IMG/VR virus record: IMGVR_UViG_3300042878_001497
Span: 1-64,000 of that record
DNA: 64,000 nt
Reading direction: 5' to 3' (one strand)
From: a virus
A program made the translations under genes and the position numbers. Below the pieces are notes generated by a model. It was not told where the DNA came from and ran no database searches. It saw only the letters and a list, made by a program, of their open reading frames with translations. This document shows, piece after piece, positions 21,576 to 63,567 of the stretch. Every line of letters begins with the position of its first letter. Position 1 is the first letter of the stretch.

Positions 21576-21828
21576 AACCTCGGTATTTAATCAAATCCAT
21601 GAGATTGTATTTCATGGCAATGGAGGGTATACTTGGGAGACCGTTTACGGAATGCCGATCTGGCTTAGAAAGTTTACCTTTGAAAGTTTGAGAAAATACT
21701 ACGAAGAGAAGAAAGAAGCAGAAGAAGAAGCTTACAGTAAAGCTAAGGGAATTGAGAAAGCAGCCCCTACAGTTGCTAAGCCGAACATAAAACCTGCTAC
21801 TTACTCTACAAAGGTCCCTAAAAACTAG
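21547..21828 (+). CDS. Probable frameshift extension (T4 gp51-like) of the chaperone
   Basis: +1-frame ORF entered at the T7 run 21549-21555; YGMPIWLR motif. Confidence 0.6.
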   Translation, partial: TFFGLTPHYRTSVFNQIHEIVFHGNGGYTWETVYGMPIWLRKFTFESLRKYYEEKKEAEEEAYSKAKGIEKAAPTVAKPNIKPATYSTKVPKN

Positions 21829-44975: not shown

Positions 44976-45012
44976 TTATAGGGTTTGCCTATACCCTTAT
45001 AATACCTGGCAG
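44976..45012 (+). ncRNA. Candidate H-type pseudoknot (divergent preQ1-I-like) in queC leader
   Basis: P1 UAUAGGG/CCUUAUA; loop UUUGCCUAUAC; P2 UGCC/GGCA. Confidence 0.4.
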
Positions 45013-45030
45013 TTATAAATTATATTTAAA

Positions 45031-45906
45031 ATGGCAAAACACGTTGTAGTTTCGTTATCTGGAGGAATGGATTCCTCAACACTCTTGCTTAGAGCATTGA
45101 GTGAATTTGATACTGTAACAGCAGTATCGTTTGACTACGGTCAAAAACACCGAGTAGAGCTTGAACGAGCTCAAGACCTGGTTAACTATTTGAATCTTAG
45201 AGCTGATGAGACTAAGTATAAAAGCGATGTAGCTGAAGTTATTATGCATCACTTTCCTAAAGTTAACTACCAGTTAATTAAACTTGACGGCTTGAGTCAA
45301 CTACTAAACTCGGCTCTAGTAACTGGAGGTGATGAAGTACCGGAAGGTCACTATGCTGCCGAGAACATGAAAGCTACCGTAGTACCTAACCGAAATAAAA
45401 TCTTCAGTTCAATCACCCAGGCAATCGCTTTATCTATCGCAAATGAAACAAAAGAAGAATGCTCCATCGCTCTCGGTATCCATGCCGGAGACCATGACAT
45501 CTACCCAGACTGCCGACAGGAGTTCCGCGACGCCGACGATCATGCGTTTCGTATGGGTAACTGGGATAACGATCGGGTATCTTATTGGACTCCTTACCTG
45601 GAAGGTAATAAGTTTACTATCTTAGAAGATGGAGAGAAGTTATGTGAGGAACTAGGACTTGAATTTGATGAAGTCTATAAGCGCACTAATACCTCTTATA
45701 AACCCATTAAGTGGTACAGTCGCAAAGAAACCAATGCATACGAATGGTACTCAGACTACAAATCAGCTTCTTCAGTAGAACGAGTTGAAGCATTTATCAA
45801 GCTAGGGCGTCCTGATCCTGCACCTTATGCTGACGAGACTGGCCCTGTGACCTGGGAGCACGTTGTGACCGAAGTATCTAAAGTACTTGAATCGCATACA
45901 AAGTAA
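45031..45906 (+). CDS. queC: 7-cyano-7-deazaguanine synthase
   Basis: SGGMDS; FDYGQKH; VPNRN; YPDCR. Confidence 0.92.
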   Translation: MAKHVVVSLSGGMDSSTLLLRALSEFDTVTAVSFDYGQKHRVELERAQDLVNYLNLRADETKYKSDVAEVIMHHFPKVNYQLIKLDGLSQLLNSALVTGGDEVPEGHYAAENMKATVVPNRNKIFSSITQAIALSIANETKEECSIALGIHAGDHDIYPDCRQEFRDADDHAFRMGNWDNDRVSYWTPYLEGNKFTILEDGEKLCEELGLEFDEVYKRTNTSYKPIKWYSRKETNAYEWYSDYKSASSVERVEAFIKLGRPDPAPYADETGPVTWEHVVTEVSKVLESHTK

Positions 45907-46254: not shown

Positions 46255-49200
46255 ATGGCTATCATATTAAGGCAAAATACTGCTACAAATACCGGTAAAG
46301 GAAGTAGGCTTACCTTTACTGAAATGGATAGCAATCTAGAATCTTTCTATATTTCTAGTTCTTTTGCGAATAACACGCTCATACTTTACACCACCGGTAG
46401 CGTTAGTCATTCCGTAGACTTAAGCTCTTTCGGAGGAAATGTAGATTCAGGCTCATTTATGGCATCGGCATCCGCTGCCGGAGGTGTAATTACTTTTGAA
46501 AAAGTAGATGGAAGTACATTCGATGTTACTGTTACTAATGTAGCATCTGCTTCTAAAGTCAATATTACAAATACTAGTAGCAGCCAGGGTTACTACTTAG
46601 TTTTTGCAGAAGCTACTTCAGGTCACCAAGATCTTAGAGCAGATTCCTCTATTGTATATAATCCGGATTCAAACACTCTGCAGACAGCAAACCTAATACT
46701 TACAGGAGACCTTACAGTACAGGGAACTAGAACAGAGCTTCAGGTTACTGAACTTAATGTAGAGGATAAGCTCATCACAGTCGCCTCAGGATCTACTACC
46801 TCAGCTCAAGCAGACGGAGCCGGTATTCAAATCGCCGGCGCAAATCAATCTGTTACTTGGGATCATACTAATTCACGTTTAAAAACTTCCACTGATTTAG
46901 GAGTTACAGGTACCCTGAACGTCTCTACAGTAGCAACAGATAACGCACTTACAGACTTTGTTGTACTTGCCGGAGACGGAACTTTAAAGAAAAGAACTTC
47001 TATAGTAGGAGCTCAGGGCGTACAGGGTACAACAGGTACTCAAGGTATTCAAGGAATAACCGGCACCCAGGGAACCCAGGGTACTCAAGGTACTCAGGGC
47101 ACCGATGGCTTACAGGGCATTCAAGGTATAACAGGTACCCAGGGTACTCAAGGTATAACAGGTACCCAGGGTACTCAAGGTACCCAGGGAACTCAAGGTA
47201 TCCAAGGAATTCAAGGAATAACCGGCACCCAGGGGGTACAAGGTACAACAGGTACTCAGGGCACTGACGGCTTACAAGGTATCCAAGGTATAACAGGCAC
47301 CCAGGGGGTACAAGGTATTACAGGCATCCAGGGAACTCAAGGAACTCAAGGCACCCAAGGAACTCAAGGAGCCCAGGGTATAACAGGTACTCAAGGCATT
47401 CAAGGTGTTACCGGAGTACAGGGTACAGACGGACTACAGGGTACTCAAGGTATTCAAGGTATTACAGGCACACAGGGTACTCAAGGTATACAAGGTACTT
47501 ACGGCGTACAGGGCGTTCAAGGTGTACAAGGTACCGACGGTTCTTTTGGTGGAGCTACCTTTGACTACACTTTCGACTCCACTACTACTTCAGGAGATCC
47601 AGGGCAAGGAAAAATTAGACTAAGTAATTCTAACGAAAATACATCTACGCAGATGTATATTGATGATTTGGATGATTTTGGAAATGATATTTCCTCATTC
47701 ATGCAAACCATTGACAGCGTAACCTCTACAGTTAAAGGTTATGCTAGAATAGCTAATCGTACCGACGCTACTCAATATCTATTATTTCAGATTTCAAACC
47801 TGACAGACAATACAGGTTGGTGGACTATAGACATTACAAACCAGGCTTCTTCAGCTACCTCTCCATTCACCAATCTGGAAGATATAACAATATCATTTAT
47901 AACTACCGGAGATAAAGGTGACACAGGTCCTCAAGGTGTTCAGGGAACTACCGGCACCCAGGGCACCAACGGTACTCAAGGTATTCAAGGTATTACTGGA
48001 GCTCAAGGTATTCAAGGCACGACAGGTACTCAAGGTACTGATGGAACTCAAGGTATACAGGGTATTACTGGTACAGGCTTACAAGGTATTCAAGGTACTC
48101 AAGGTACTAACGGTACTCAAGGCATACAAGGTATTACCGGAGCAGGTACTCAAGGTATTCAGGGTACAACAGGTACTCAGGGTAACAACGGTACTCAAGG
48201 TATCCAGGGTATTACCGGAGCCGGAACCCAAGGCATCCAAGGAATAACCGGAGCACAAGGTACCGATGGTACCCAAGGTATTCAAGGTATTACCGGAGCT
48301 GGAACTCAAGGAACACAAGGTACTACCGGAACTGCTACACAAGGCATCCAAGGTACTCAGGGAACGACAGGTTCAGCAACCCAGGGTATTCAAGGTATTG
48401 ATGGTAACCAAGGCATTCAAGGTACTACAGGAACTGCTACACAAGGTATTCAAGGAACACAAGGTACCACTGGAACTGCTACACAAGGTATTCAAGGTAC
48501 TACTGGAACTGCTACACAAGGTATTCAAGGAACACAAGGTACCACTGGAACTGCTACACAAGGTATTCAAGGTACTACTGGAACTGCTACACAGGGCATA
48601 CAGGGAACACAAGGTACCACTGGAACTGCTACACAAGGTATTCAAGGAACACAAGGTACCACTGGAACTGCTACTCAAGGCATCCAGGGCATTATTGGAA
48701 GCCAGGGTATACAAGGTACTACTGGTTCCGCTACTCAAGGCATTCAAGGAACACAAGGTACCACTGGAACTGCAACTCAAGGTACACAAGGTACCCAGGG
48801 CACAACAGGAACTGCAACTCAAGGAATACAAGGTACTACTGGTTCCGCTACTCAAGGTATTCAGGGAACACAAGGCACTACCGGAACTGCCACACAAGGT
48901 ATACAAGGCATTCAAGGTACTATCGGAACTGCTACTCAAGGCATTCAAGGAACACAGGGCACTACCGGAACTGCTACACAGGGCATACAGGGAATAACAG
49001 GCACTCAAGGAACCGACGGTACTCAAGGAATCCAGGGTATTACCGGAGGTCAGGGTACACAAGGTACCACTGGAACTGCAACTCAAGGTATTCAAGGTAT
49101 AACAGGTATTCAAGGTACTCAAGGAATTCAAGGTCCTTCAAACCCAAATGCTATAAGCGTAGATATAGCTAATGCTACAGGGGATGTTGAGTATAGAAGT

Positions 49201-50688
49201 CTATTAATTGATGCCTCGGGAAATACAGGTGAAACATTATATGCTACCAGCTCTTTTATTTATAATCCAACCTTAAATAGATTATCTATTGGGGATGATC
49301 CTAATAGACAAATTTACCTTTGGGGAGGTTCTCCCATTGTAACGGGCAGTACTGCCCTAGGTTTCTTTACTTTAGGAGACAATTCAGGCAATTATAATAC
49401 AGCTGTAGGATATTTTTCTCAAAGAACAAACTACGGTAGAGAAAATACTACTTTAGGCGCTTTTACTTTAGAGCTCCCAGCCGCTGGTGAAAGTGTAGAA
49501 AGTATTAAAAATACTGTAGTAGGATATGGTGCTTTGCGAAATACTGGGGATAGTACAAATACTCTAGCTGTAGCTATAGGATATAATGCATTAGGAACTG
49601 GGGGATCTAATAAAGATATTGCTATTGGTAACAGTGCTTTAATTGCAGGAAATACTGTCCCAGCAGGTACTGGTAAAAATATAGCCATTGGAGATAATGC
49701 AATGGCTGGAGGAATTGCAAGTGATGGTGGTAATAATATTGCTATAGGAACTAGCACTCTCAGTACTCTTTTAGGCAACGTATCTAATAATATAGCTATA
49801 GGTAATTTAGCCGGTAGTAGTGTATCTAGTGGAGCCGATAATGTTTTCTTAGGTGCGGATGCAGGCAGAACTGTATCTACTGGAACTCATAATACTTTTT
49901 TAGGTACTGAAGCGGGGGAACTTGTGACTACAGGTATTACGAATACTTTTGTAGGTAGGAGCGCCGGAGTTTCTTTTACAACAGGTAATAATAATGTTGT
50001 AATTGGTGGGTTTGGTGGAGCTGCTACAGGATATGTTTCACAAAATTCAAATATTTTTATATCAGATGGAGCTGGTCAAGTAAGAATTTTTGCTACAGGT
50101 TCTACAGGTAATATTGGTATTGATACATTTACTCCAGCTTTTAAGGTAGATGTAAACGGTACTTTAGGAGCTGAATTATCTAGTACTTCTGATAATTCTA
50201 ATATAGTATCTTGGAATAGTGCTACAGATGAAGTACAGTACATTCCCAAAATAAGCGTAGATACTAACGCATATAATCCTAGTGGGAGCGGTGGAGTTAG
50301 TGATAAGACTTATCTGGTATTAAATGACGGATACAGTATTGATAACGAGATAGAGTACGGATATTTCGCCCGCTCGTCACTGGTTAACTCTCCTCCTACA
50401 ACCTATACAGTTCTCACTGTCCCTCAAACCACATACCACTCAGTAGTAATAGACTACACAACCTCAGATTCATCTTATGCGTTTACTAGATCGCAAAGGT
50501 TTATTTGTCATTGGGATAACGGTAGTGGTATTTTCTATACTAATTCTGGAGCTCCAGATTTGGGATCTATAAATGCCTCTCATATACTAACTGGTGTTAT
50601 CTCTGCCGGTAATATTCAAATAAGGTTAACTAATTACCTTTCAGGTGGTAGAATTATAGGAGATTATAAGCTCTTTAAGAAAATATAA
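46255..50688 (+). CDS. Long collagen-like fibre protein with YadA-like repeats
   Basis: KGSRLTFTEMDSN attachment-like N-terminus; two QG(I/T)QG collagen blocks; NIAIG repeats. Confidence 0.85.
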   Translation: MAIILRQNTATNTGKGSRLTFTEMDSNLESFYISSSFANNTLILYTTGSVSHSVDLSSFGGNVDSGSFMASASAAGGVITFEKVDGSTFDVTVTNVASASKVNITNTSSSQGYYLVFAEATSGHQDLRADSSIVYNPDSNTLQTANLILTGDLTVQGTRTELQVTELNVEDKLITVASGSTTSAQADGAGIQIAGANQSVTWDHTNSRLKTSTDLGVTGTLNVSTVATDNALTDFVVLAGDGTLKKRTSIVGAQGVQGTTGTQGIQGITGTQGTQGTQGTQGTDGLQGIQGITGTQGTQGITGTQGTQGTQGTQGIQGIQGITGTQGVQGTTGTQGTDGLQGIQGITGTQGVQGITGIQGTQGTQGTQGTQGAQGITGTQGIQGVTGVQGTDGLQGTQGIQGITGTQGTQGIQGTYGVQGVQGVQGTDGSFGGATFDYTFDSTTTSGDPGQGKIRLSNSNENTSTQMYIDDLDDFGNDISSFMQTIDSVTSTVKGYARIANRTDATQYLLFQISNLTDNTGWWTIDITNQASSATSPFTNLEDITISFITTGDKGDTGPQGVQGTTGTQGTNGTQGIQGITGAQGIQGTTGTQGTDGTQGIQGITGTGLQGIQGTQGTNGTQGIQGITGAGTQGIQGTTGTQGNNGTQGIQGITGAGTQGIQGITGAQGTDGTQGIQGITGAGTQGTQGTTGTATQGIQGTQGTTGSATQGIQGIDGNQGIQGTTGTATQGIQGTQGTTGTATQGIQGTTGTATQGIQGTQGTTGTATQGIQGTTGTATQGIQGTQGTTGTATQGIQGTQGTTGTATQGIQGIIGSQGIQGTTGSATQGIQGTQGTTGTATQGTQGTQGTTGTATQGIQGTTGSATQGIQGTQGTTGTATQGIQGIQGTIGTATQGIQGTQGTTGTATQGIQGITGTQGTDGTQGIQGITGGQGTQGTTGTATQGIQGITGIQGTQGIQGPSNPNAISVDIANATGDVEYRSLLIDASGNTGETLYATSSFIYNPTLNRLSIGDDPNRQIYLWGGSPIVTGSTALGFFTLGDNSGNYNTAVGYFSQRTNYGRENTTLGAFTLELPAAGESVESIKNTVVGYGALRNTGDSTNTLAVAIGYNALGTGGSNKDIAIGNSALIAGNTVPAGTGKNIAIGDNAMAGGIASDGGNNIAIGTSTLSTLLGNVSNNIAIGNLAGSSVSSGADNVFLGADAGRTVSTGTHNTFLGTEAGELVTTGITNTFVGRSAGVSFTTGNNNVVIGGFGGAATGYVSQNSNIFISDGAGQVRIFATGSTGNIGIDTFTPAFKVDVNGTLGAELSSTSDNSNIVSWNSATDEVQYIPKISVDTNAYNPSGSGGVSDKTYLVLNDGYSIDNEIEYGYFARSSLVNSPPTTYTVLTVPQTTYHSVVIDYTTSDSSYAFTRSQRFICHWDNGSGIFYTNSGAPDLGSINASHILTGVISAGNIQIRLTNYLSGGRIIGDYKLFKKI
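47008..49137 (+). repeat. Two blocks of G-X-Y collagen-like DNA repeats (approx. 47008-47540 and 47910-49137)
   Basis: CAAGGT-based repeats, including 33/42-bp units. Confidence 0.9.
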
Positions 50689-51586: not shown

Positions 51587-51615
51587 TTGTAGATTCAACT
51601 ATTTATTCTTATATT
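51587..51615 (+). promoter_or_regulatory. Host sigmaA-type promoter TTG-N20-TATATT upstream of riboswitch candidate 1
   Basis: Recurrent motif. Confidence 0.65.
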
Positions 51616-51619
51616 GTAT

Positions 51620-51652
51620 AGGTGTCGTAGCACCACCTTAAAAAAACACTAA
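51620..51652 (+). ncRNA. preQ1 class I riboswitch-like aptamer (queD-queE operon)
   Basis: P1 AGGUG/CACCU; loop UCGUAGCAC; tail UAAAAAAACACUAA; ATG at 51654. Confidence 0.72.
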
Positions 51653-51653
51653 T

Positions 51654-51929
51654 ATGGCAAAAAAGCAGTTATTGACTGAACCGGTCCTTCCTAAGGACAG
51701 TATTATCAATCCCGAACTCTACCACAAGGTAAAAGGGACCAATTCTAAGATTGATACCAAGTTTAAGCACTTGGAGAAGATGCCTGATCAAAAATGGCAT
51801 CAAATTATTTCTTTTATTAAATCTGGCGTTCGAATTGTAGGCTACGGAATCATTCCTTTTGATTTGGTAGCAGCTGCAATCGTTCTTATATTTAGTGAAG
51901 TAATCGGTATTATTGAAGAATTAGTATGA
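51654..51929 (+). CDS. Small membrane protein, first gene of queD-queE operon
   Basis: C-terminal hydrophobic segment; ATGA overlap with queD. Confidence 0.65.
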   Translation: MAKKQLLTEPVLPKDSIINPELYHKVKGTNSKIDTKFKHLEKMPDQKWHQIISFIKSGVRIVGYGIIPFDLVAAAIVLIFSEVIGIIEELV

Positions 51930-52390
51930 GCACATTTAGATCAACAAAAGTATTTGATGGTTACTCAACAGTATTCCGTCAATGGAAAGCCGAAGGAACA
52001 CACTGCAGATTCCTTCACGGCTATGGAGTAAGTTTAAAAGTATGGTTCGAAGGTGAACTTGACGAACGTAACTGGGTATGGGATTTCGGAGGTATGAAAC
52101 GTGCTACTGGAACTATTGACGGTATGAATCCTAAAGCATGGATGGATCATATGCTCGACCATACTACAATTATTGCAGAAGATGATCCGTATCTTTCTTA
52201 CTTCCAGAATATGTACACAGAAGGTATGATTCAATTACGAGTTATTCCAGCTACTGGAGCAGAGCGTTTTGCAGAGTATTTCTACAATAAACTGAATACA
52301 TTTATTCAAGAAGAAACAGATAATCGTGTTAAAGTAGTTCAAGTTGAATTTCGTGAGCACGAAAAGAACACAGCATTTTATAAAGGTTAA
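51926..52390 (+). CDS. queD: 6-carboxy-5,6,7,8-tetrahydropterin synthase
   Basis: HCRFLHGY; WDFG; LDH; GAERFA; FREH. Confidence 0.88.
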   Translation: MSTFRSTKVFDGYSTVFRQWKAEGTHCRFLHGYGVSLKVWFEGELDERNWVWDFGGMKRATGTIDGMNPKAWMDHMLDHTTIIAEDDPYLSYFQNMYTEGMIQLRVIPATGAERFAEYFYNKLNTFIQEETDNRVKVVQVEFREHEKNTAFYKG

Positions 52391-52392
52391 TT

Positions 52393-53175
52393 ATGCCATT
52401 AGGAAGAATAGAAGATTATAGTAAAGTTCTACCGATTGTAGAGCTTTACACTTGCATCCAGTCAGAAGGCAGCCGTGCCGGCCGTCCTACTGTTGCAGTC
52501 CGTACTACAGGCTGTACCCACCGCTGCTACTTCGGAGAAGGCGGATGGTGTGATAGCTGGTACACTTCAATCCATCCGGAGAAAGGTAAATACACTTTCC
52601 AGGATATTATCAACATTTACGATCAGAATCCTGAAATTAAGGAGATGATGCTGACGGGCGGTTCACCGACCATGCACCCTAAGCTTGTAAATGAACTAAC
52701 TCACTTTGCAAATGAAAGGCAAATTATCATCACAATCGAAACAGAAGGGTCTGCTTTCCTCGAAACAGATCATCCTATTGGGCTTATATCTTTCAGCCCT
52801 AAATTTAGCAACAGCGTGCCTGTACTTGGGACTACTACACCTCTTGGGGATATTGTAGACGAGAAACTTATCAAGACTCACAACCGTTACCGTCTCAATA
52901 AAGAGTCGATTGCTAAGTCAATGACTTACCATTCGGACTACCATATGAAGGTAGTAGTAAACCCAGTGGAGGACCCTCAGACATGGGCAGAGATTAAGTC
53001 TTTCCTAGATGAACTACAGGTACCTAAGCATAAGATTTGGATCATGCCTCCGGGGGATAATCGTCAGGAACTTATCCGAGTTTACCCAGCGGTAATTCAA
53101 TGGTGTACAGACAATATGTACAACTTCACCGGCCGTGAACACATCATTGCTTTTGATACTAAAAGAGAAGTTTAA
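52393..53175 (+). CDS. queE: 7-carboxy-7-deazaguanine synthase (radical SAM)
   Basis: IQSEG...G; GCTHRC..WCDS; TGGSP; IETEG; SPK. Confidence 0.9.
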   Translation: MPLGRIEDYSKVLPIVELYTCIQSEGSRAGRPTVAVRTTGCTHRCYFGEGGWCDSWYTSIHPEKGKYTFQDIINIYDQNPEIKEMMLTGGSPTMHPKLVNELTHFANERQIIITIETEGSAFLETDHPIGLISFSPKFSNSVPVLGTTTPLGDIVDEKLIKTHNRYRLNKESIAKSMTYHSDYHMKVVVNPVEDPQTWAEIKSFLDELQVPKHKIWIMPPGDNRQELIRVYPAVIQWCTDNMYNFTGREHIIAFDTKREV

Positions 53176-53529: not shown

Positions 53530-53721
53530 ATGACATTAGGACAGGTTATAACAGTAGGAGATGATTGGTACCAGGTTATTAGAACAGTTAGAGAAGGTCG
53601 TGAATGGGATGTTGAACTTCTTAAACAGTACTGGTTTTGTTCGCATACCTTCCGTAAGGATGGTTTACTCTATTTTTGCCGAGCGATTGAAAAAGTTGAA
53701 TTTGAAGAAATAACAGAGTGA
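53530..53721 (+). CDS. Small hypothetical protein
   Basis: Packed ORF. Confidence 0.55.
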   Translation: MTLGQVITVGDDWYQVIRTVREGREWDVELLKQYWFCSHTFRKDGLLYFCRAIEKVEFEEITE

Positions 53722-54392
53722 TTGCAATACTAGGAGGAACAGGGTTGCTGGGAAAAGAGTTACAAAAGCTAGATTCTTCCTTAGTCTGTACGGGCCGGGA
53801 AATTGATATTACTAACTTTAAAGAAGTCTTCTACTACCTTAATAAAGTAAACCCGGATACTGTAGTCAACGCAGCTGCAATAACAAATTCCATAGAGGTT
53901 TCTGAGAATCCTATTCCTGCTATAGACGTTAATATTATAGGTGCTGCTAATATAGCTAAGTACTGTCAGCAATATGGTAAGAGATTGGTATATATTAGCA
54001 CAGACTACGTCTATCCCGGAACTGGTAACCATGTAGAGGATGATGCTCTATACCCAAATAACGAATATGCGTGGACTAAATTAGGGGGAGAATGTTCTTC
54101 TAGATTGGTGAAAGATCATTGTATAATTCGTACTAGTTTTGGAAGTAGAAAATTTCCTTATCCTGCTGCATATATAAATTTATTTACAAGTAAAGAATAC
54201 GTAGGTGTGCTTGCTCCTCAAATCTTAAAAATTATACAGAGTAAACTTAACGGAATTGTAAATGTAGGAGGTTACAGAAAAAGTTCATATATTTACGCAT
54301 CACAGTACAGCAAGGTTGACAAAATTCAATTAGAACATAGTAAAGATTTTAGCCTAAACACAGCAAAATATAATGAGAATTTCCCAGAGTGA
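53718..54392 (+). CDS. RmlD-like NDP-sugar reductase
   Basis: GGTGLLG; NAAA; ISTDYVY; YAWTKLGGE; IIRTS. Confidence 0.85.
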   Translation: MIAILGGTGLLGKELQKLDSSLVCTGREIDITNFKEVFYYLNKVNPDTVVNAAAITNSIEVSENPIPAIDVNIIGAANIAKYCQQYGKRLVYISTDYVYPGTGNHVEDDALYPNNEYAWTKLGGECSSRLVKDHCIIRTSFGSRKFPYPAAYINLFTSKEYVGVLAPQILKIIQSKLNGIVNVGGYRKSSYIYASQYSKVDKIQLEHSKDFSLNTAKYNENFPE

Positions 54393-55605
54393 TTCATGCC
54401 CGATAACCGGAACTTCAGAAAGACTTAAGTACTTTTCTCTAGGCGAAATGCCGCTTGTTAATAATCTTGCCGATACTTTAGAAGAATCTTTAACCTGCAA
54501 AAAGATTCCTTTAGAACTAAACTATTTTGCAGAATCAAAACTTACTGCTTTAACTACTTTTGTAGACAGTCAGTCTTTGTTTAGTAACTACCTTTACAAG
54601 TCTGGAGTTAACACTCCCTACATTTCTCATAGTAGAAAAATGTTCAAAGATGTACGGAAGCTCTTACAACTTAAAGACCAGGACCTTATTGTAGACATTG
54701 GAGGTAATGATGGAACACTTCTTAAAACTTTTCGAGAAACTTCTAAAACATCCCTACAGTACCTAAATATTGATGGTTCTGAAAACATCACACAGTACTC
54801 TAAAGAACAGGGAATTAATACACTCTGCGAGTTTTTTAATGAAGATACCCCTACCCGAGTTAAAACTTTAGCCAAAGTTGTTGTATCCACAAATGTTTTT
54901 CAACATTTACAGGATACTAATTCTTTTGTTAGAGGGGTAAAAAAACTTCTACAATCAGACGGTGTATGGGTACTAGAATTTCCGTACTGGCTTCATGATA
55001 TGAAGACCAAGCAATTTGACCAGGTGTACCATGAGCATATGTACTACTACACAGTTACTCCGCTAGTAGCAATGATGCAAAAACACGAGTTGGAAGTTTT
55101 ACGAGTAGTTCCTCAAAAAATACATGGAGGTACTTTGCGTCTAATCATAGGGCATTTAGGAGGTAATCAACACCTAAAAGATAGTAGTGTAGAAGTTTAC
55201 CTAAAGAGAGAATCTAAACTTACACCCAAGTTCTACCAGCAGTGGGGAGCAAAAATTAAACAGCATTTGGTATCCTGTGAGAGTGAACTAAAGTACCTAA
55301 AAGGTAAAGGTAAGACCCTGGTAGGATTTGCTGCAAGTGCTAAGGGATGTGTCTTTCTAAACAGTGCCGGGATAGATTGTAAAGTACTTGATTTCATTAT
55401 CGATGATACTGATATAAAACAAGGCAAATTTATGCCGGGTACCGGACTAGAAATTAAAGGGAGAGGAGATGTAGATTTTGAACAAATTGATTACATTCTT
55501 ATACTCTCTCATAATTTTAGTGATCATATCATAAAAAGTCTTAAAGACGAAGGATATGAAGGTAAGTTTGTTGTGTGTTTACCTTCTTATAAAGTACTAT
55601 CATGA
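54373..55605 (+). CDS. NDP-hexose C-methyltransferase-like protein
   Basis: LGEMPLVN; DIGGNDGTLL; FDQVYHEH; IHGGTLR; AASAKG; KQGKFMPG. Confidence 0.85.
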   Translation: MRISQSDSCPITGTSERLKYFSLGEMPLVNNLADTLEESLTCKKIPLELNYFAESKLTALTTFVDSQSLFSNYLYKSGVNTPYISHSRKMFKDVRKLLQLKDQDLIVDIGGNDGTLLKTFRETSKTSLQYLNIDGSENITQYSKEQGINTLCEFFNEDTPTRVKTLAKVVVSTNVFQHLQDTNSFVRGVKKLLQSDGVWVLEFPYWLHDMKTKQFDQVYHEHMYYYTVTPLVAMMQKHELEVLRVVPQKIHGGTLRLIIGHLGGNQHLKDSSVEVYLKRESKLTPKFYQQWGAKIKQHLVSCESELKYLKGKGKTLVGFAASAKGCVFLNSAGIDCKVLDFIIDDTDIKQGKFMPGTGLEIKGRGDVDFEQIDYILILSHNFSDHIIKSLKDEGYEGKFVVCLPSYKVLS

Positions 55606-56378
55606 ATTCAATCCCAGTAATAGGAACAGCAATTGTAAACACGCCCTACTGGCTATACCGGCTGATTGCTAGTGTAGACTACCCGGTGGATAACTTTGTT
55701 ATCTTTAATAACAACGGTCGAGGAGAAATCACAGAAGAGCTTGACAATCTAGCTAAACTCTCTCATAAGTTTATTAAGAAAATTACAGTATGCCACTTAC
55801 CTGCTAATCTAGGTGTGCCTGGAGCATTTAACCTTATTATAAAAAGTTATATAAATTCTCCTAGCTGGTTGATAGTAAACTACGATGTAGCTTTTGGACC
55901 AGGCTTCTTAAAAGAGATGGCAGAGAAAGCTTCTGACCCGGAAGTAGGAATGGTACATGGTAAAGCAGGTGATTTTGATTTACCGAGCTGGGATGTATTC
56001 CTAATTAAAGACTGGGTAGTACAGCAGTACGGACTCTTTGACGAAAACTTAACCCCAGCTTACTGCGAAGATGCAGATTATTTTATGAGATTTGTGCATA
56101 GGCCTATAAAAGTAGTAAAGCAGCTAGACAGTATTTATTACCACGGCCCTGGTGTAGATTACTACGAACACGGAAGTCAAACCAAAAAAGGAGAACCTGC
56201 ACTAGCAGCAAAATTAGATCAGGTTAACGAAATAAATTTTGAATATATGTTTAAAAAGTGGGGTGAAGGTTGGAGATGGGTAAACCCACTACCTACACCT
56301 TTTGATATAGAAGGAACTCCTATCTCAACAACTACTTTTGATTTAGAATTTGTACGCAAAAAACATTTAGGCTTTTAA
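55602..56378 (+). CDS. GT2-like glycosyltransferase
   Basis: NLGVPGAFN; NYDV; GLFDENLTPAYCEDADY. Confidence 0.75.
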   Translation: MNSIPVIGTAIVNTPYWLYRLIASVDYPVDNFVIFNNNGRGEITEELDNLAKLSHKFIKKITVCHLPANLGVPGAFNLIIKSYINSPSWLIVNYDVAFGPGFLKEMAEKASDPEVGMVHGKAGDFDLPSWDVFLIKDWVVQQYGLFDENLTPAYCEDADYFMRFVHRPIKVVKQLDSIYYHGPGVDYYEHGSQTKKGEPALAAKLDQVNEINFEYMFKKWGEGWRWVNPLPTPFDIEGTPISTTTFDLEFVRKKHLGF

Positions 56379-56379
56379 T

Positions 56380-57054
56380 ATGGACGAATATACTTTATAC
56401 GACGCTGAACCGGATTCACAGTGGGGAATCATTACAGGAAATTTAGCACAACACAACCCTCAGCAGAATCCACGATTCTGGGTGGTTGATAATTTTTATA
56501 AGAATCCCGACCAAATTAGGGAGTACGGTCTCTCGCAAGTATACTTTGAGGGGGAAGGAGCAGTGGGTTGGAGAACCCGTAAGCAGTTCCTTTTTGATGG
56601 ACTCAAAGAGCAGTTTGAAAAAATTACAAACAAGAAGATTTTAGATCATACCCCGGAAGGAACCGGCTGGTACGATGTAGGTATTAACGGACGCTTCCAG
56701 GCCTGTGAAGCAGGAACTAAGACGGTATTTCACTGCGATAGCCAGCAATGGGCTGCAGTTCTCTATCTAACTCCAGATGCTCCTCCCCAGAGCGGTACTA
56801 GCTTCTACCGACATAAGGAGACTAAAGTTAGACATAGTTCTGAGATTGCTTGGGGTACCGGGGAAGAACTGGCCACATTTAATCAAAAGACCTTTGTTGA
56901 TCCTACTCCTTTTGAGAGAGTAGATACAGTTGGTAACGTTTATAACAGGCTTGTTATTTTTGATGGAAAGCTTATTCACTCCGGTAATGATTACTTTGGA
57001 TGGGATATTCCTTCTAGCAGGTTCTTTCAAATTTTCTTTTTTGATGTTGAGTAA
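56380..57054 (+). CDS. 2OG-Fe(II) oxygenase-like protein
   Basis: VVDNFY..P; HCD; VLYL; GTSFY; NRLVIFDG.LIHS; SR. Confidence 0.75.
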   Translation: MDEYTLYDAEPDSQWGIITGNLAQHNPQQNPRFWVVDNFYKNPDQIREYGLSQVYFEGEGAVGWRTRKQFLFDGLKEQFEKITNKKILDHTPEGTGWYDVGINGRFQACEAGTKTVFHCDSQQWAAVLYLTPDAPPQSGTSFYRHKETKVRHSSEIAWGTGEELATFNQKTFVDPTPFERVDTVGNVYNRLVIFDGKLIHSGNDYFGWDIPSSRFFQIFFFDVE

Positions 57055-57409
57055 AGTTTTTTTAATTGACATCGACGGTACAATCTGCGATGATATCAAG
57101 AACGAAGAAAGCCACCTGTACCCGGCCGCTAACCCTTTGCCCAATGCTAGGGATATTATCAATAAATGGTACGATGAAGGTAGCGTAATTACTTTCTTTA
57201 CTGCCCGAGAATCCAAAGATAGAGCAGTAACAGAGGAGTGGCTTCACCGCCACGGTTTCAAGTACCACGGGCTTGTAATGGACAAGCCTAGAATTAAAGA
57301 TGGACAGGAGTATGTCTGGATTGATAACAGGAAAGTTAGAGCAATCACCTATCTTGGTACTTGGTCCGAACTAACAGAAGTAGATGCAAGAATACAAACC
57401 TTTCAGTAA
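57044..57409 (+). CDS. Small HAD-family phosphatase
   Basis: IDIDGTI; FTAR; MDKPR; WIDN. Confidence 0.75.
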   Translation: MLSKVFLIDIDGTICDDIKNEESHLYPAANPLPNARDIINKWYDEGSVITFFTARESKDRAVTEEWLHRHGFKYHGLVMDKPRIKDGQEYVWIDNRKVRAITYLGTWSELTEVDARIQTFQ

Positions 57410-58404
57410 TGAACAACTTAGATAAAGCATACCAGGCACTCCTACAGGACATCCTAGATAACGGAGTGAAAAAGGAAGACAGAACAGGTACTGGAACTAT
57501 CTCAGTATTTGGTCGTCAAATTAGACATAAAATGTCCGAAGGTTATCCTTTGCTTACTATCAAGAAAATGGCATTCAAGACTATGGTAACTGAGTTACTA
57601 TGGTTTTTGAAAGGAGATACCAATATCAAGTATTTGGTTGAGAATGGATGTAACATATGGACTGGGGATGCTTATAAGAATTATTCAAGTAAAGTTCAAC
57701 CATGGGAACCTCATTCAGATCTGAATCATTTCATTGAACGAATCAAAACTGATGATAAGTTTGCTAAGAAGTGGGGTGAATTAGGTCCAATTTACGGTAA
57801 GCAATGGAGAGCATTTGATGAAGAGGAATGGGGTGGTATAGACCAAATCCAAAACCTAATTAACGACCTCAAAACAAACCCAGACTCAAGACGATTAATG
57901 GTTACAGCTTGGAATCCATCCTATCAGCATCAAATGGTTCTTCCGCCTTGTCATTATGGATTTCAAGTCTATACTCGTGAATTACATTTGGATGAGCGAA
58001 TTGACATTTATAATGGTGATAGAATTCCCATGAATCAAAGTAGCGATTATTTTCACGAGCATATGGATGCTTACGGTATTCCTCGTAGAGCAATCTCTTT
58101 AATGTGGAATCAACGTTCAGTAGATACATTCTTAGGTTTACCTTTCAATATTGCCTCTTACGGACTATTGCTTGAAATGATTGCTAAAGAAGTAAACATG
58201 GTACCTGACGAATTGATTGGTAATTTAGGAGATGTTCATTTGTATTCAAATCACATTGAACAAGCAAAAGAACAAATCACTAGAAAGCCAATGACATTAC
58301 CTACAGTAGAGATAACAGAACTAAATTTGTTGGAAGGTAGTGTATCGGTAGAACTAAAAAATTATATTCACCACGACCCAATTAAAGCACCTTTATCAAA
58401 TTAA
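57409..58404 (+). CDS. thyA: Thymidylate synthase
   Basis: DRTGTGT; ELLWFL; PIYGKQWR; LPPCH; QRSVDTFLGLPFNIASY; HLYSNH. Confidence 0.97.
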   Translation: MNNLDKAYQALLQDILDNGVKKEDRTGTGTISVFGRQIRHKMSEGYPLLTIKKMAFKTMVTELLWFLKGDTNIKYLVENGCNIWTGDAYKNYSSKVQPWEPHSDLNHFIERIKTDDKFAKKWGELGPIYGKQWRAFDEEEWGGIDQIQNLINDLKTNPDSRRLMVTAWNPSYQHQMVLPPCHYGFQVYTRELHLDERIDIYNGDRIPMNQSSDYFHEHMDAYGIPRRAISLMWNQRSVDTFLGLPFNIASYGLLLEMIAKEVNMVPDELIGNLGDVHLYSNHIEQAKEQITRKPMTLPTVEITELNLLEGSVSVELKNYIHHDPIKAPLSN

Positions 58405-58406
58405 TT

Positions 58407-59000
58407 ATGAAAAAACTAATACTACTATTTTTATTTCCTATCTCGCTGTTTGGACAGCTCCGTGATAGTGTTTACTTTAATAACAACAATTTTATTGTTA
58501 ACTACTCCGAAACCCTAGAAGGACCTCGTTCGATACGTTATACAGTGCTTTGTCCGACCGGCACAGCTTCAAGATCGGGTATGGAGTTCTACAAGGAGAA
58601 AAAGATTCACACCTCAGATCACAAAGACTATGAAGCAAACGAATGGGATAAAGGGCACATGGCCCCCGCGGCATCTTTTAATTGCAATCGTGATATGCTA
58701 TACGGTACTTTCACCTATGTCAATTCTAGCCTTCAACAACAAAGTCTAAATAGAGGAGTTTGGAAAAAACTCGAAGTAAGAGAAAGAGAATTAGCTACAT
58801 CAGGACCAGTACGAGTTTTTATCCGAGTTGAATACCCTACTACTCCTGTTAGAGTTACAACCGGTGCTGCTATACCTTTAGGGTACTATAAGGAAATAAA
58901 AGTTGGAAATAAGAGAGAATGTTACTATTTTAAGAACGTAGCCCCGTCTACTTCGGACTTGGAGGCTTTTAAATGTACTTGCAAAAACGTTATCCAATGA
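58407..59000 (+). CDS. Secreted DNA/RNA non-specific endonuclease (NucA/EndA-like)
   Basis: Signal peptide; WDKGHMAPA; LNRGVWKKLE; IP..YYK. Confidence 0.85.
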   Translation: MKKLILLFLFPISLFGQLRDSVYFNNNNFIVNYSETLEGPRSIRYTVLCPTGTASRSGMEFYKEKKIHTSDHKDYEANEWDKGHMAPAASFNCNRDMLYGTFTYVNSSLQQQSLNRGVWKKLEVRERELATSGPVRVFIRVEYPTTPVRVTTGAAIPLGYYKEIKVGNKRECYYFKNVAPSTSDLEAFKCTCKNVIQ

Positions 59001-59905: not shown

Positions 59906-60303
59906 TCAACACCCACCCGATCAAGAAATCAGACCTAGGCTTCCACGGAAATCTCTTCGGTGGAAAGCTTATGGCCTGGATCGATGCGGCAGCAGCCTCT
60001 TATGCAATGGAGGTGTGTCACAATCGCAGAATGGTTACCGTCTGCATTGATAAGTGTGTGTTTAAGAAGCCTGCAAAGGAAGGGTCTCTGCTAAAGATAT
60101 ACGGGGATACCCTACATATCGGCACTACTAGCGTAACGCTTTACCTGGAAGGAAGAAGCTTTAACGTCTACACCCACGGTGAGGATGTAGTGCTGAGTAC
60201 CAACATTACCTTTGTCCGCATTGACGAAGAAGGAAGTGCTATTCCAATTTCAGATACAGTAAGAGAAAATTTAAAAAAGTATTTAGATGCAAAGTCTATT
60301 TGA
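59896..60303 (+). CDS. HotDog-fold acyl-CoA thioesterase
   Basis: HGNLFGGKLMAWID; MVTV; FKKP; TFVRID. Confidence 0.85.
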   Translation: MQLINTHPIKKSDLGFHGNLFGGKLMAWIDAAAASYAMEVCHNRRMVTVCIDKCVFKKPAKEGSLLKIYGDTLHIGTTSVTLYLEGRSFNVYTHGEDVVLSTNITFVRIDEEGSAIPISDTVRENLKKYLDAKSI

Positions 60304-60799
60304 TATTAAAGAGATCGAAATCCAGACTAAAATCCTTGCCAAGAAGATTTCAGCTGAACACCAAGGAGACAAAACTCCCGTTGTAATGGTAGGACTGTTG
60401 AACGGAGCATTTATGTTCTATGCAGACCTGGTACGCAATATGGGCATTGATGTGGAATGTGACTTCATGAGAGTTAAAAGCTACACAGCCCAGTTCAAGC
60501 AAGGAGATATTAAGATTATTAAAGATCTCGAGACTCCTATCAGAGGAAAGCACGTGTACCTGGTAGACGATATCTACGATACCGGCTCTACTATGAAAGC
60601 ATTAATTGAGTACCTAGAGGTAAAAAAGCCCGCCTCTATCTCAATTGTAACTCTACTCCGTAGAGAAACCTCTCCAATCCCGGATCAAGCCTTCTACAAG
60701 TACCATGCATTCACCATCAAGGATGAATGGGTAGTAGGATTTGGAATGGATGACGAAAAAGGTTATTCAAGAAATCTCAATGGAGTATTTGCTCTGTAA
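60287..60799 (+). CDS. hpt: Hypoxanthine-guanine phosphoribosyltransferase
   Basis: LLNGAFMFYADL; VDDIYDTGST; WVVGFGMD. Confidence 0.9.
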   Translation: MQSLFDIKEIEIQTKILAKKISAEHQGDKTPVVMVGLLNGAFMFYADLVRNMGIDVECDFMRVKSYTAQFKQGDIKIIKDLETPIRGKHVYLVDDIYDTGSTMKALIEYLEVKKPASISIVTLLRRETSPIPDQAFYKYHAFTIKDEWVVGFGMDDEKGYSRNLNGVFAL

Positions 60800-60817
60800 G
60801 AGAAGTTTTCGTATATT
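60789..60817 (+). promoter_or_regulatory. Host sigmaA-type promoter TTG-N20-TATATT upstream of riboswitch candidate 2
   Basis: Recurrent motif. Confidence 0.65.
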
Positions 60818-60822
60818 AAACA

Positions 60823-60856
60823 AAGGTGTTCGAAGCACCACCTTAAAAAAACAATT
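60823..60856 (+). ncRNA. preQ1 class I riboswitch-like aptamer (folE operon)
   Basis: P1 AAGGUG/CACCUU; loop UUCGAAGCAC; tail AAAAAAACAAUU; ATG at 60859. Confidence 0.72.
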
Positions 60857-60858
60857 AT

Positions 60859-61569
60859 ATGGCAGATAAAAAACGTTATGATGTAGAGTTAGCTCAAGCC
60901 GGCTTTGCCAACGGTATTTCCTCTCAACTGGCAGAGAAATTTAACATGCATAAGATGAACGATATCTCTCTTACCGAACAAGAGAAATACGTTATTATTG
61001 AAAGAGCAGCTAAAGCATTCGGTGAGTTTCTCGATGCATTAGGAGTTGATTGGAAGAACGATCCTAACTCTTCAGATACTCCACGTCGTGTAGCAAAAGC
61101 TTATGTAAACGATTTATGGTACGGCCGATTCAATCCTATGCCTGCTATCACAGCCTTCCCTTCAGATGGTTACGACGGCATTGTATTTGAAGGAAATATT
61201 CCTTTGACTTCGATGTGTTCACATCACCATCAGACCATTACCGGTCGAGTTCATATCGGCTACATCCCCTCTAAGGACGGAAAGGTAATCGGGCTTTCTA
61301 AACTGAATCGTATTGTAGAGCATTTCGGCCGTCGAGGAGCTATTCAGGAGCAGCTTACTGTTGCTATCCATAACGCAGTTGATACTGTGTGTGAAGGTAA
61401 CCTTGGAGTAGCTGTAATGATTGAGGCAGGTCATAACTGTGTATCATGCCGAGGCACCAAGCACGCCGGTGCATCAATGAAAACATCAAAGCTTTCAGGC
61501 AGCTTCCTTGAAGAAGATTCAGCCCGTGCAGAGTTTTATGAATTTGTAAAAGGATACGCATGCAAGTAA
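60859..61569 (+). CDS. folE: GTP cyclohydrolase I
   Basis: TPRRVAK; SMCSHH; GLSKLNR; IQEQLT; HNCVSCRG. Confidence 0.95.
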   Translation: MADKKRYDVELAQAGFANGISSQLAEKFNMHKMNDISLTEQEKYVIIERAAKAFGEFLDALGVDWKNDPNSSDTPRRVAKAYVNDLWYGRFNPMPAITAFPSDGYDGIVFEGNIPLTSMCSHHHQTITGRVHIGYIPSKDGKVIGLSKLNRIVEHFGRRGAIQEQLTVAIHNAVDTVCEGNLGVAVMIEAGHNCVSCRGTKHAGASMKTSKLSGSFLEEDSARAEFYEFVKGYACK

Positions 61570-62054: not shown

Positions 62055-62239
62055 CACCCCAGCAGCTAATCGATCAAAATAAAACCTTCTCAGAAGAGTT
62101 GCAGCAATGGATTGTACCTCTTATCTTTGTAGACGAAGCTCTTCAGATGAAAACTGCCCAGGATGTAGATGCTAGTATGAAGAGACTTGAAGAAGTAATG
62201 CAAGACCTCAACACAGTAATTAGCAAGATAAATGATTAA
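62051..62239 (+). CDS. Small hypothetical protein
   Basis: Packed ORF. Confidence 0.55.
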   Translation: MTPQQLIDQNKTFSEELQQWIVPLIFVDEALQMKTAQDVDASMKRLEEVMQDLNTVISKIND

Positions 62240-63062
62240 AATTGCCCATGAGTCTCCAAAAGCTATTTTTAAAGAGATTCAAGAACTTACCGACTACGAC
62301 TACGCTCTAGTTCACCTCTTTGAAGAGGATCCTGAATACCTTCAGAAGTTTAAGGATGCTCTGGCAGCCGGCCGAGAAGTTATTCTAGATAATTCTATTT
62401 TTGAGTTAGAAGAAGCTTTTGATGCTAATCGTTTTGCTTACTGGATTAACGAACTTAAGCCAACCTGGTACATCGTTCCTGACTCGTTAGAGAATGTAGA
62501 GAAGACTATGTCTAATATGGCAGAATGGAATATACACTATGCTGATAAAGTTCCTGCAGAATGTAAGAAGATTGGAGTAGTACAGGGAAAGACTTACTCT
62601 CAGATAGTCAATTGCTACGAATACATGGTCAGTATAGCCGAAGTAGATATGGTGGCAATCTCTTTCGATTACAGTTATTTCCAAGAGAAATTCCCTCATC
62701 CTAACAAATACGTTAGCTGGATGCTAGGCCGGGTACAGTTGCTAGGTCGAATGCTTAAAGACGGAGTTATTAATCCTGACGTACCTCACCACCTTTTAGG
62801 TTGCGGACTACCTCAAGAGTTTCAATTCTACCGAGAGGCTAAGTACGATTGGATTTACTCCCTAGATACTTCCAATCCTGTGGTTCACGGACTGAAGGAG
62901 ATTTACTACAAAGACCAAGGACTGTGGAATAAAGAATCTCAGAAGCTCTTTACCATGATTAACTCCGAAGTTACGGAGAAGCAAATGGAGGTCATTCGTC
63001 ATAATGTTTCACGCTTTAGATGGTTTGCAAATGGAAACGCGCCCGTGGGTAACATTCTTTAG
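62232..63062 (+). CDS. dpdA: TGT-fold guanine transglycosylase (DpdA-like, probably DpdA3 type)
   Basis: ILDNS; IVPD; GVVQG; HHLLG; SLDTSNP correspond to TGT/DpdA catalytic motifs; clustered with folE. Confidence 0.7.
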   Translation: MIKIAHESPKAIFKEIQELTDYDYALVHLFEEDPEYLQKFKDALAAGREVILDNSIFELEEAFDANRFAYWINELKPTWYIVPDSLENVEKTMSNMAEWNIHYADKVPAECKKIGVVQGKTYSQIVNCYEYMVSIAEVDMVAISFDYSYFQEKFPHPNKYVSWMLGRVQLLGRMLKDGVINPDVPHHLLGCGLPQEFQFYREAKYDWIYSLDTSNPVVHGLKEIYYKDQGLWNKESQKLFTMINSEVTEKQMEVIRHNVSRFRWFANGNAPVGNIL

Positions 63063-63567
63063 TCAGACAGGTTCTGAGATCGTTCAGATCTCGGAAGCTC
63101 TAGGGCGGTGGCCGGATATGATTATTAGTAATCGCCGACCGACTGATGCTAGAATTATTAGTCCTGCTCTTCCTAAAGATCGTCTGTACTTTACCTCCAA
63201 TAAGCCAGAAGCTTACGAATACTTACATTATCTCCGTCAGGCAAAAGATCCGATTGTAACTCTACACGGATGGCTTAGAGTACTTCCTGAAGAGGTTTGT
63301 GACAGTTACGAAGTTTACAACGGTCATCCAGGTTTGATTACCCGCTACCCTGAACTGAAGGGTAAAGATCCTCAGATGCGAGCTTTTGAAGGAGATTATA
63401 ATACTGGTGGTTGCGTGATTCATAAAGTAACTCCCGGAGTAGACGAAGGAGAGATTCTAATGGAAAAAGAAATTAGCATTAGACTGTTGGATCTTGACGG
63501 ACTATTCCGTACATTACATAAGACTTCAGTCAATATGTGGATTGAATTCCTTAAAGAACGTCTATGA
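63031..63567 (+). CDS. PurN-like formyltransferase (candidate preQ1 formyltransferase)
   Basis: FFSQTGS; LHGWLRVL; NGHPG; GCVIHKVTPGVDEGEI. Confidence 0.8.
   Translation: METRPWVTFFSQTGSEIVQISEALGRWPDMIISNRRPTDARIISPALPKDRLYFTSNKPEAYEYLHYLRQAKDPIVTLHGWLRVLPEEVCDSYEVYNGHPGLITRYPELKGKDPQMRAFEGDYNTGGCVIHKVTPGVDEGEILMEKEISIRLLDLDGLFRTLHKTSVNMWIEFLKERL

Follow-up and report, generated by a model that had tools for sequence, protein, structure and literature searches.

Two leaders of one phage genome, at 51620-51653 and 60824-60858, have a conserved structure with invariant nucleotides, stand in front of genes of the 7-deazaguanine pathway and resemble preQ1-I riboswitches. We consider it likely that they represent a compact, phage-borne variant of the preQ1-I class that represses translation, a reading in which we infer ligand binding, the OFF direction and control at the level of translation. 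As dozens of related uncultured phages keep the element, the phage probably senses a precursor of its own DNA modification. The window, by which we mean the whole stretch of DNA that was analysed, covers positions 1 to 64,000 of an IMG/VR virus record of 173,415 bp, and its DNA is also present in many lake-water metagenomes.

The first of the two leaders, copy A, had been described in the first-pass annotation, and all the motif letters and coordinates given there, the specificity C at 51633 included, match the sequence. Its 9-nt loop (TCGTAGCAC as DNA, UCGUAGCAC as RNA) spans 51625-33 and ends in this putative specificity C, while the sequence 3' of the CACCT strand, TAAAAAAACACTAAT, forms a tail that stops 1 nt short of the ATG of the next gene at 51654. 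The promoter proposed for this leader reads TTG (51587-89), a 20-nt spacer and TATATT (51610-15), followed after four bases by P1. These letters are indeed present, but they could not be confirmed as a promoter: a sigma-70 promoter scan called neither the copy A nor the copy B leader, and TATATT is widespread in the phage, with 90 sites on the + strand, 31 of which stand no more than 60 nt 5' of the start of an ORF. We count against the riboswitch reading that the box of copy A ends 4 nt 5' of P1; transcription that begins about 7 nt past the box would cut P1 short. Lake metatranscriptome contigs matched queE and folE at 100% identity; they carry no start-site information and are possibly derived from DNA.

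When the whole genome was searched with the Rfam PreQ1 model (RF00522), four sub-threshold matches were obtained, the best of which (21.8 bits, 60819-60860) lies directly 5' of folE. This is copy B, which reads AGGTG-TTCGAAGCAC-CACCT-TAAAAAAACAATTAT-ATG as DNA and is near-identical to copy A. Its loop, UUCGAAGCAC, occupies 60829-38 with the putative specificity C at 60838, and is followed by L3 (60844-51), the conserved C at 60852 and the folE ATG at 60859. Searches with a regular expression and with the covariance model R1 both found exactly two copies in the 173,415-bp genome, each immediately preceding a 7-deazaguanine operon. The presence of a near-identical copy before folE argues that the copy A motif is not a chance match. 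Moreover, since the TATATT box is common in the genome and the hairpin with its tail occurs only twice, the latter is a feature separate from the promoter. Two copies arranged as in the window were also found in several other phages, and in five related phage records the matches that were not taken as copies score below 19 bits with R1. The sub-threshold RF00522 matches at 21808, which resembles a terminator, and at 119428 precede unknown genes, have no R1 match and were read as chance.

Table. Positions in the window of the two leaders, their promoter-like boxes and the pathway genes, with the basis of each assignment.
Feature	Position	Strand	Basis or remark
Putative promoter of copy A: TTG, 20-nt spacer, TATATT	51587..51615	+	sequence
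Copy A hairpin, P1 AGGUG 51620-24 / CACCU 51634-38	51620..51638	+	R1 57.6 bits; P1 covaries in relatives
Copy A tail: U and seven A = L3 (51639-46), conserved C 51647, then ACUAAU	51639..51653	+	
CGTATATT box upstream of copy B	60810..60817	+	identical box before folE copies of closest relatives
Copy B, P1 AGGUG 60824-28 / CACCU 60839-43	60824..60858	+	RF00522 21.8 bits, E 0.0034 for genome; R1 54.8 bits
queC	45031..45906	+	PF06508
orf91, 91-aa protein, gene directly under copy A	51654..51929	+	
queD-like 6-carboxytetrahydropterin synthase	51926..52390	+	PF01242, E 8.5e-15; TIGR03367 below its cut-off
queE-like radical SAM 7-carboxy-7-deazaguanine synthase	52393..53175	+	PF04055; best matches QueE NCBIfam models, all below cut-offs
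folE, GTP cyclohydrolase I, first pathway step	60859..61569	+	PF01227, E 9e-44; TIGR00063
DpdA3-type DNA transglycosylase	62232..63062	+	71% identity to immuto DpdA; missed by Pfam TGT model
DpdN-like formyltransferase	63004..63567	+	58% identity to immuto formyltransferase

The pathway gene set of the phage is complete, with QueC, QueD, QueE, FolE, DpdA3 and DpdN. The same genes are found in the relative immuto_2-6A, whose formyltransferase has been named DpdN and in whose DNA guanine is replaced by fdPreQ1/formyl-preQ1 (Cui et al. 2023, PMC10516641). Judged by its genes, the window phage replaces the guanine in its DNA by a modified 7-deazaguanine base, predicted to be formyl-preQ1. The queD-like gene shares about 74% nucleotide identity with immuto QueD, and the second operon runs in the order folE, a MazG-like gene, dpdA and dpdN. 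The leader of queC, on the other hand, gave no R1 match and has no copy of the element, which we count against the riboswitch reading. This leader (44980-45030) has a hairpin of its own, AGGGT-TTGCCTAT-ACCCT, and because a TATAAT lies 3' of it, this hairpin may be located upstream of the promoter and thus outside the mRNA.

Copy A was thought to be the direct leader of queD-queE. This proved incorrect, as the first gene under it is orf91, the stop codon of which overlaps the ATG of the queD-like gene (ATGA), and queE comes after queD. No Pfam, NCBIfam or PHROG family matched orf91, and no homologue was found in GenBank phage records. A sequence search returned 789 homologues, and among the matches listed 120 of 120 are unnamed and have no Pfam domain; the nearest Atlas clusters are viral. 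These proteins make up a large family of small unnamed proteins from uncultured viral and environmental sequences, with homologues also in the loci L096, L097 and L094, and their C-terminus is strongly conserved (P.QKWH..SFIKSG.RI.GY...SE.IGI.EELV). In the predicted structure of orf91 the C-terminus forms a helical hairpin (mean pLDDT 68). Since the element is directly followed by this gene in 29 distinct leaders, orf91 is a candidate component of the 7-deazaguanine pathway, and probably one that has gone unrecognised.

Other genes of the window lie close to the two operons. Immediately 5' of the folE leader is a hypoxanthine-guanine phosphoribosyltransferase gene (60287-60799; TIGR01203 at its cut-off), and immediately 3' of folE a gene for a MazG-like NTP pyrophosphohydrolase; together, these neighbours suggest that the modified base, or else guanine, is handled by the phage in nucleotide form. 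Directly 3' of queE, a gapless sugar-type cassette (53718-57054) encodes an RmlD-like reductase, a C-methyltransferase, a GT2 glycosyltransferase and a DUF6445 protein, and is followed by a long (347-aa) thymidylate-synthase homologue (57361-58404). Cassette and homologue may serve a further modification, of DNA or otherwise. Over the latter gene (57458-58450) the depth in contigs from lake metagenomes is raised roughly 4- to 50-fold and partial contigs and joints are numerous, probably because reads of other organisms are recruited to a conserved gene. Between queC and the orf91 operon lies a gene for a 1477-aa protein with many collagen triple-helix repeats (46255-50688).

Relatives of the two leaders were retrieved by FolE-based locus retrieval and by a degenerate pattern scan of IMG/VR, both filtered with R1, and 63 distinct leaders were collected from IMG/VR phage contigs. 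The gene downstream is orf91 in 29 of them, folE in 25, queD in 2, queE in 2 and unknown in 2, and the remaining 3 run into the end of the contig. Leaders of orf91 usually continue into queD and queE, those of folE into mazG and dpdA, so that 58 of the 63 precede orf91-queD-queE, folE, queD or queE. Named genes from outside the pathway were found downstream of the element in none of the 63. The proposed link to 7-deazaguanine genes is thus borne out, as every leader with a nameable downstream gene heads genes of this pathway; the orientation of the element relative to that gene is the same in all leaders. In immuto_2-6A the element is present in one copy, before folE and with a compensatory change in P1, whereas the window phage has two; immuto also differs in having no orf91. 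Its queD leader does not have the element, which again counts against the riboswitch reading. In the closest relatives (IMGVR_UViG_3300027525_000642 and 3300027751_001002; locus L130, 9672-9711, equal to L098), a 197-aa lipoprotein-like ORF lies between the element and orf91, and the leader has the loop UCGGAGCAC and the tail CACCGG.

Conservation among the relatives had been named in the first-pass annotation as a check on the element, and we found P1 kept with two covarying pairs, the loop C invariant and the A-rich tail present. Over 59 distinct rows, four pairs of P1 can be drawn in 99.2% of cells. At the outer pair AU occurs 36 times, UA 12 times and GC 9 times, and at the third pair UA 44 times and AU 15 times; the remaining two, both G-C and one of them the invariant closing pair, never vary. 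When the 3' partner was slid as a control, pairing fell to at most 65% of cells. Since the scan pattern left the 5' strand and the outer pair unconstrained, the pairing of P1 is not an artefact of the search. Of the 5-bp P1 originally described, these four pairs are conserved, but the fifth, A-U, is found in only 6 of 19 relatives. We count against the riboswitch reading that P1 has only four conserved pairs, two of them invariant.

In the loop, U1, A5, G6 and C9 never vary, U1 and C9 being the same in 63 of 63 distinct leaders. L3 is an A-run of 6-9 nt, with a length of 7 nt in 48 of the 63, and A-C closes it in every leader. The conserved C stands 2-12 nt before the ATG, and the nearest promoter-like box 0-23 nt upstream of P1. 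This tight spacing to the ATG and loose spacing to the box indicate that the element is tied to the start codon and not to the promoter.

A P2 formed by UAG (51628-30) and CUA (51649-51) is possible in copy A, as had been proposed, but it is not conserved in the relatives. The invariant loop G and the invariant tail C could pair; they never vary, so they give no covariation signal, and the complementarity between loop and tail (3.83) is barely above that in shuffled tails (3.37). P2 would define the pseudoknot, and that covariation does not support it counts against the riboswitch reading. Pairing of the loop CGUA with (U)AUG was considered as well and rejected: U stands at position -1 in 42 of 63 leaders and in 68 of 162 phage genes, a mere hint, and such a pairing fits poorly with the fixed A-run and C.

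The register-shifted hairpin, GGUGU-CGUA-GCACC, follows the alternative GGUG/CACC register of the first-pass annotation and buries the putative specificity C. It is the predicted minimum-energy fold of both window copies (-6.2 and -6.3 kcal/mol, versus about -3.2 for the aptamer P1), which we count in favour of the riboswitch reading. It is the predicted fold in 38 of the 63 leaders, all of them from GUG/GCAC lineages, but it cannot form in GAG/GAAC lineages. This failure counts against the riboswitch reading, and the alternative register is therefore at most a lineage-specific refinement.

The architecture itself, a G-C-closed hairpin whose loop has U first and C last, with an A-rich tail behind it, is preQ1-I-like as first described. 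Against RF00522, the gathering score of which is 39, copy A reaches 10.2 bits, which is not significant by itself, and copy B 21.8, and the relatives score no better. However, when copy B was compared with all 4227 Rfam families, PreQ1 came out first (E 0.0067), and the alignment, GG-UUCG-A...C-C...UAAAAAAC, covers the closing G, the UUCG and the terminal C. At gathering thresholds, no Rfam family matched anywhere in the window, and a permissive Rfam scan around copy A returned nothing relevant. The likeness also holds in the opposite direction: R1 searched against 93.5 kb of Bacilli DNA surrounding true preQ1-I riboswitches gave 13 weak matches (E up to 10), 8 of which lie exactly on true RF00522 sites. 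The E. coli yhhQ riboswitch, a preQ1-I type III member that has been crystallised and tested (PMC10622847), gave no match to RF00522 at E up to 10. Given that an accepted member escapes the model in this way, the RF00522 threshold is a poor judge of compact members.

In preQ1-I structures, the pocket is made by G5, the loop U, the specificity C and an adenine that reads the edge of the ligand (PMC10622847), and the invariant residues of the phage element correspond to them: the G that closes P1, the U that opens the loop, the C that ends it, and the A-C behind the A-run. The element shares several further traits with type II members, such as the Thermoanaerobacter tengcongensis and Bacillus subtilis queC leaders covered by RF00522. 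Both have a short P1 closed by G-C, a loop with U first that starts UCG or UUCG and has a G a few residues before the terminal specificity C, an A-rich L3 of similar length with a C at once after it, and an association with genes of preQ0/preQ1 synthesis; the loop G and tail C of the phage element may also pair, in the way seen in solved type II structures. The phage loop, however, has 9 nt and the type II loop 10-12, with only two residues between the phage G and the specificity C. The phage P1 is usually 4 bp, its P2 is not conserved beyond the G-C candidate, and there is no Shine-Dalgarno (SD) sequence or terminator to sequester. Finally, the phage element stays below the Rfam threshold, and its carriers are Bacteroidota phages and not bacteria.

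With type III (E. coli yhhQ), the element has in common a loop of 9 nt with CAC at its 3' end (E. coli, UUCCCUCAC; copy A, UCGUAGCAC), a very small aptamer that acts on translation, putatively so in the phage, and the escape from the Rfam model. The E. coli loop is pyrimidine-rich and pairs with an AAGG SD, whereas the phage loop contains purines (GUAG) and faces no SD. Likewise, L3 is long and variable in E. coli but a tight 6-9 nt in the phages, and the E. coli member controls a transporter, whereas the phage element heads biosynthesis genes.

In searches that covered a sample of bacterial genomes, we have so far found this variant only in phage sequence. None of 151 sampled Flavobacteriales genomes gave an RF00522 match of at least 39 bits, and R1 found nothing convincing in them, the best two matches (30 and 27 bits) lying in unrelated sequence. 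We count the absence of such a riboswitch from these sampled hosts against the riboswitch reading. Matches of the pattern scan in bacterial genomes were rejected as chance, except for one on a phage-like MAG contig with a phage-type folE. Cellulophaga phage phiST does not have the element, its single weak match being a terminator.

How such an element might work can be proposed from its parts. P1, with its four pairs and a fifth in the window phage, would provide the closing G-C as the floor of a binding pocket, in which the terminal C of the 9-nt loop would pair Watson-Crick with a 7-deazaguanine base. The A-run of 6-9 nt would lie along P1, and the A-C at its end would complete the pocket, its C pairing with the invariant loop G. 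As ligand, preQ1 or preQ0 in free form may serve, or possibly a different 7-substituted deazaguanine that the phage makes. Upon its accumulation, the pseudoknot would lock the A-rich leader, which ends 2-12 nt before an AUG that has no Shine-Dalgarno, and would lower translation initiation of folE and orf91, with queD presumably following orf91 by way of the ATGA overlap. In this way the pathway behind the formyl-preQ1 DNA base would be under feedback at both of its entry points. In the lineage of the window phage, the ligand-free RNA would probably adopt the register-shifted hairpin, with the specificity C buried and the leader single-stranded.

Bacteroidota initiate translation on A-rich, unstructured leaders. 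The leaders described here contain neither a terminator nor an SD, and only a few bases separate the aptamer from the AUG. Taken together, these features make an OFF switch that works by removing the leader from the ribosome the most economical reading.

The same features can be read in other ways. The main rival is an RNA operator, whereby a phage or host protein that acts as a translational repressor or activator would bind the RNA at its invariant loop and A-rich tail, placing both operons under joint control with no small-molecule contact. A short hairpin with an invariant 9-nt loop beside the AUG is also typical of protein-bound translational operators, and the P2 without covariation, as well as the sampled hosts without a related riboswitch, would be in keeping with it. 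We nevertheless regard an RNA operator as rather unlikely, because the invariant nucleotides are those that contact the ligand in solved preQ1-I structures (PMC10622847) and because copy B has PreQ1 as its best Rfam family, in a likeness that is reciprocal. Furthermore, no gene for a candidate regulator accompanies the element; orf91 stands 3' of it and is missing in immuto, which does have the copy before folE.

The invariance of the loop across lineages with diverged P1 and flanks, and the confinement of the element to one pathway in 63 distinct leaders, also make it improbable that we are looking at a generic 5' stem-loop with an A-rich leader, which would stabilise the mRNA or enhance SD-less translation with no sensing and would have been duplicated as a promoter-leader cassette. 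The preference of Bacteroidota for A-rich, unstructured leaders, the position of the hairpin at the start of the transcript or close to it and the TATATT box that accompanies both copies all fit such a cassette; yet a stabilising hairpin needs no fixed 7-nt A-run followed by C, and the box is common in a genome in which hairpin and tail occur but twice. An inverted repeat GGTG...CACC lying 0-23 nt from a promoter-like box could, in principle, be a DNA operator bound by a transcription factor beside the promoter. We hold this to be highly improbable, given that the half-sites undergo compensatory swaps but neither the asymmetric 9-nt spacer nor the strand-specific A-run changes, that the position of the element follows the ATG and not the box, and that its orientation to the downstream gene never changes.

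Going back to the preQ1-I reading, we lean, on balance, towards a broader interpretation, namely that the element constitutes a fourth, phage-specific preQ1-I type and the first riboswitch over a DNA-hypermodification pathway. It would comprise feedback by the phage's own 7-deazaguanine precursor (possibly a derivative such as formyl-preQ1 and not preQ1 itself), an SD-less platform that captures the A-rich leader and, in some lineages, a register-shift hairpin. The literature searched agrees with the first-pass annotation, which knew of no riboswitch over a phage 7-deazaguanine pathway: it contains no description of a phage preQ1 riboswitch, and in none of its papers is a riboswitch connected with DpdA or with the 7-deazaguanine genes of phages. 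Cui et al. 2023 (PMC10516641) do not mention a riboswitch, and a 2017 survey in which riboswitches are rare in phages lists none for preQ1 (PMC5473149).

Through the element, orf91, whose family of small proteins is uncharacterised, emerges as a probable new part of the pathway. If the ligand is bound, the element would be among the smallest natural aptamers known and an example of riboswitch control of translation in SD-less Bacteroidota. In that case, these phages would meter the precursor of the guanine-replacing DNA base with which they defeat restriction enzymes.
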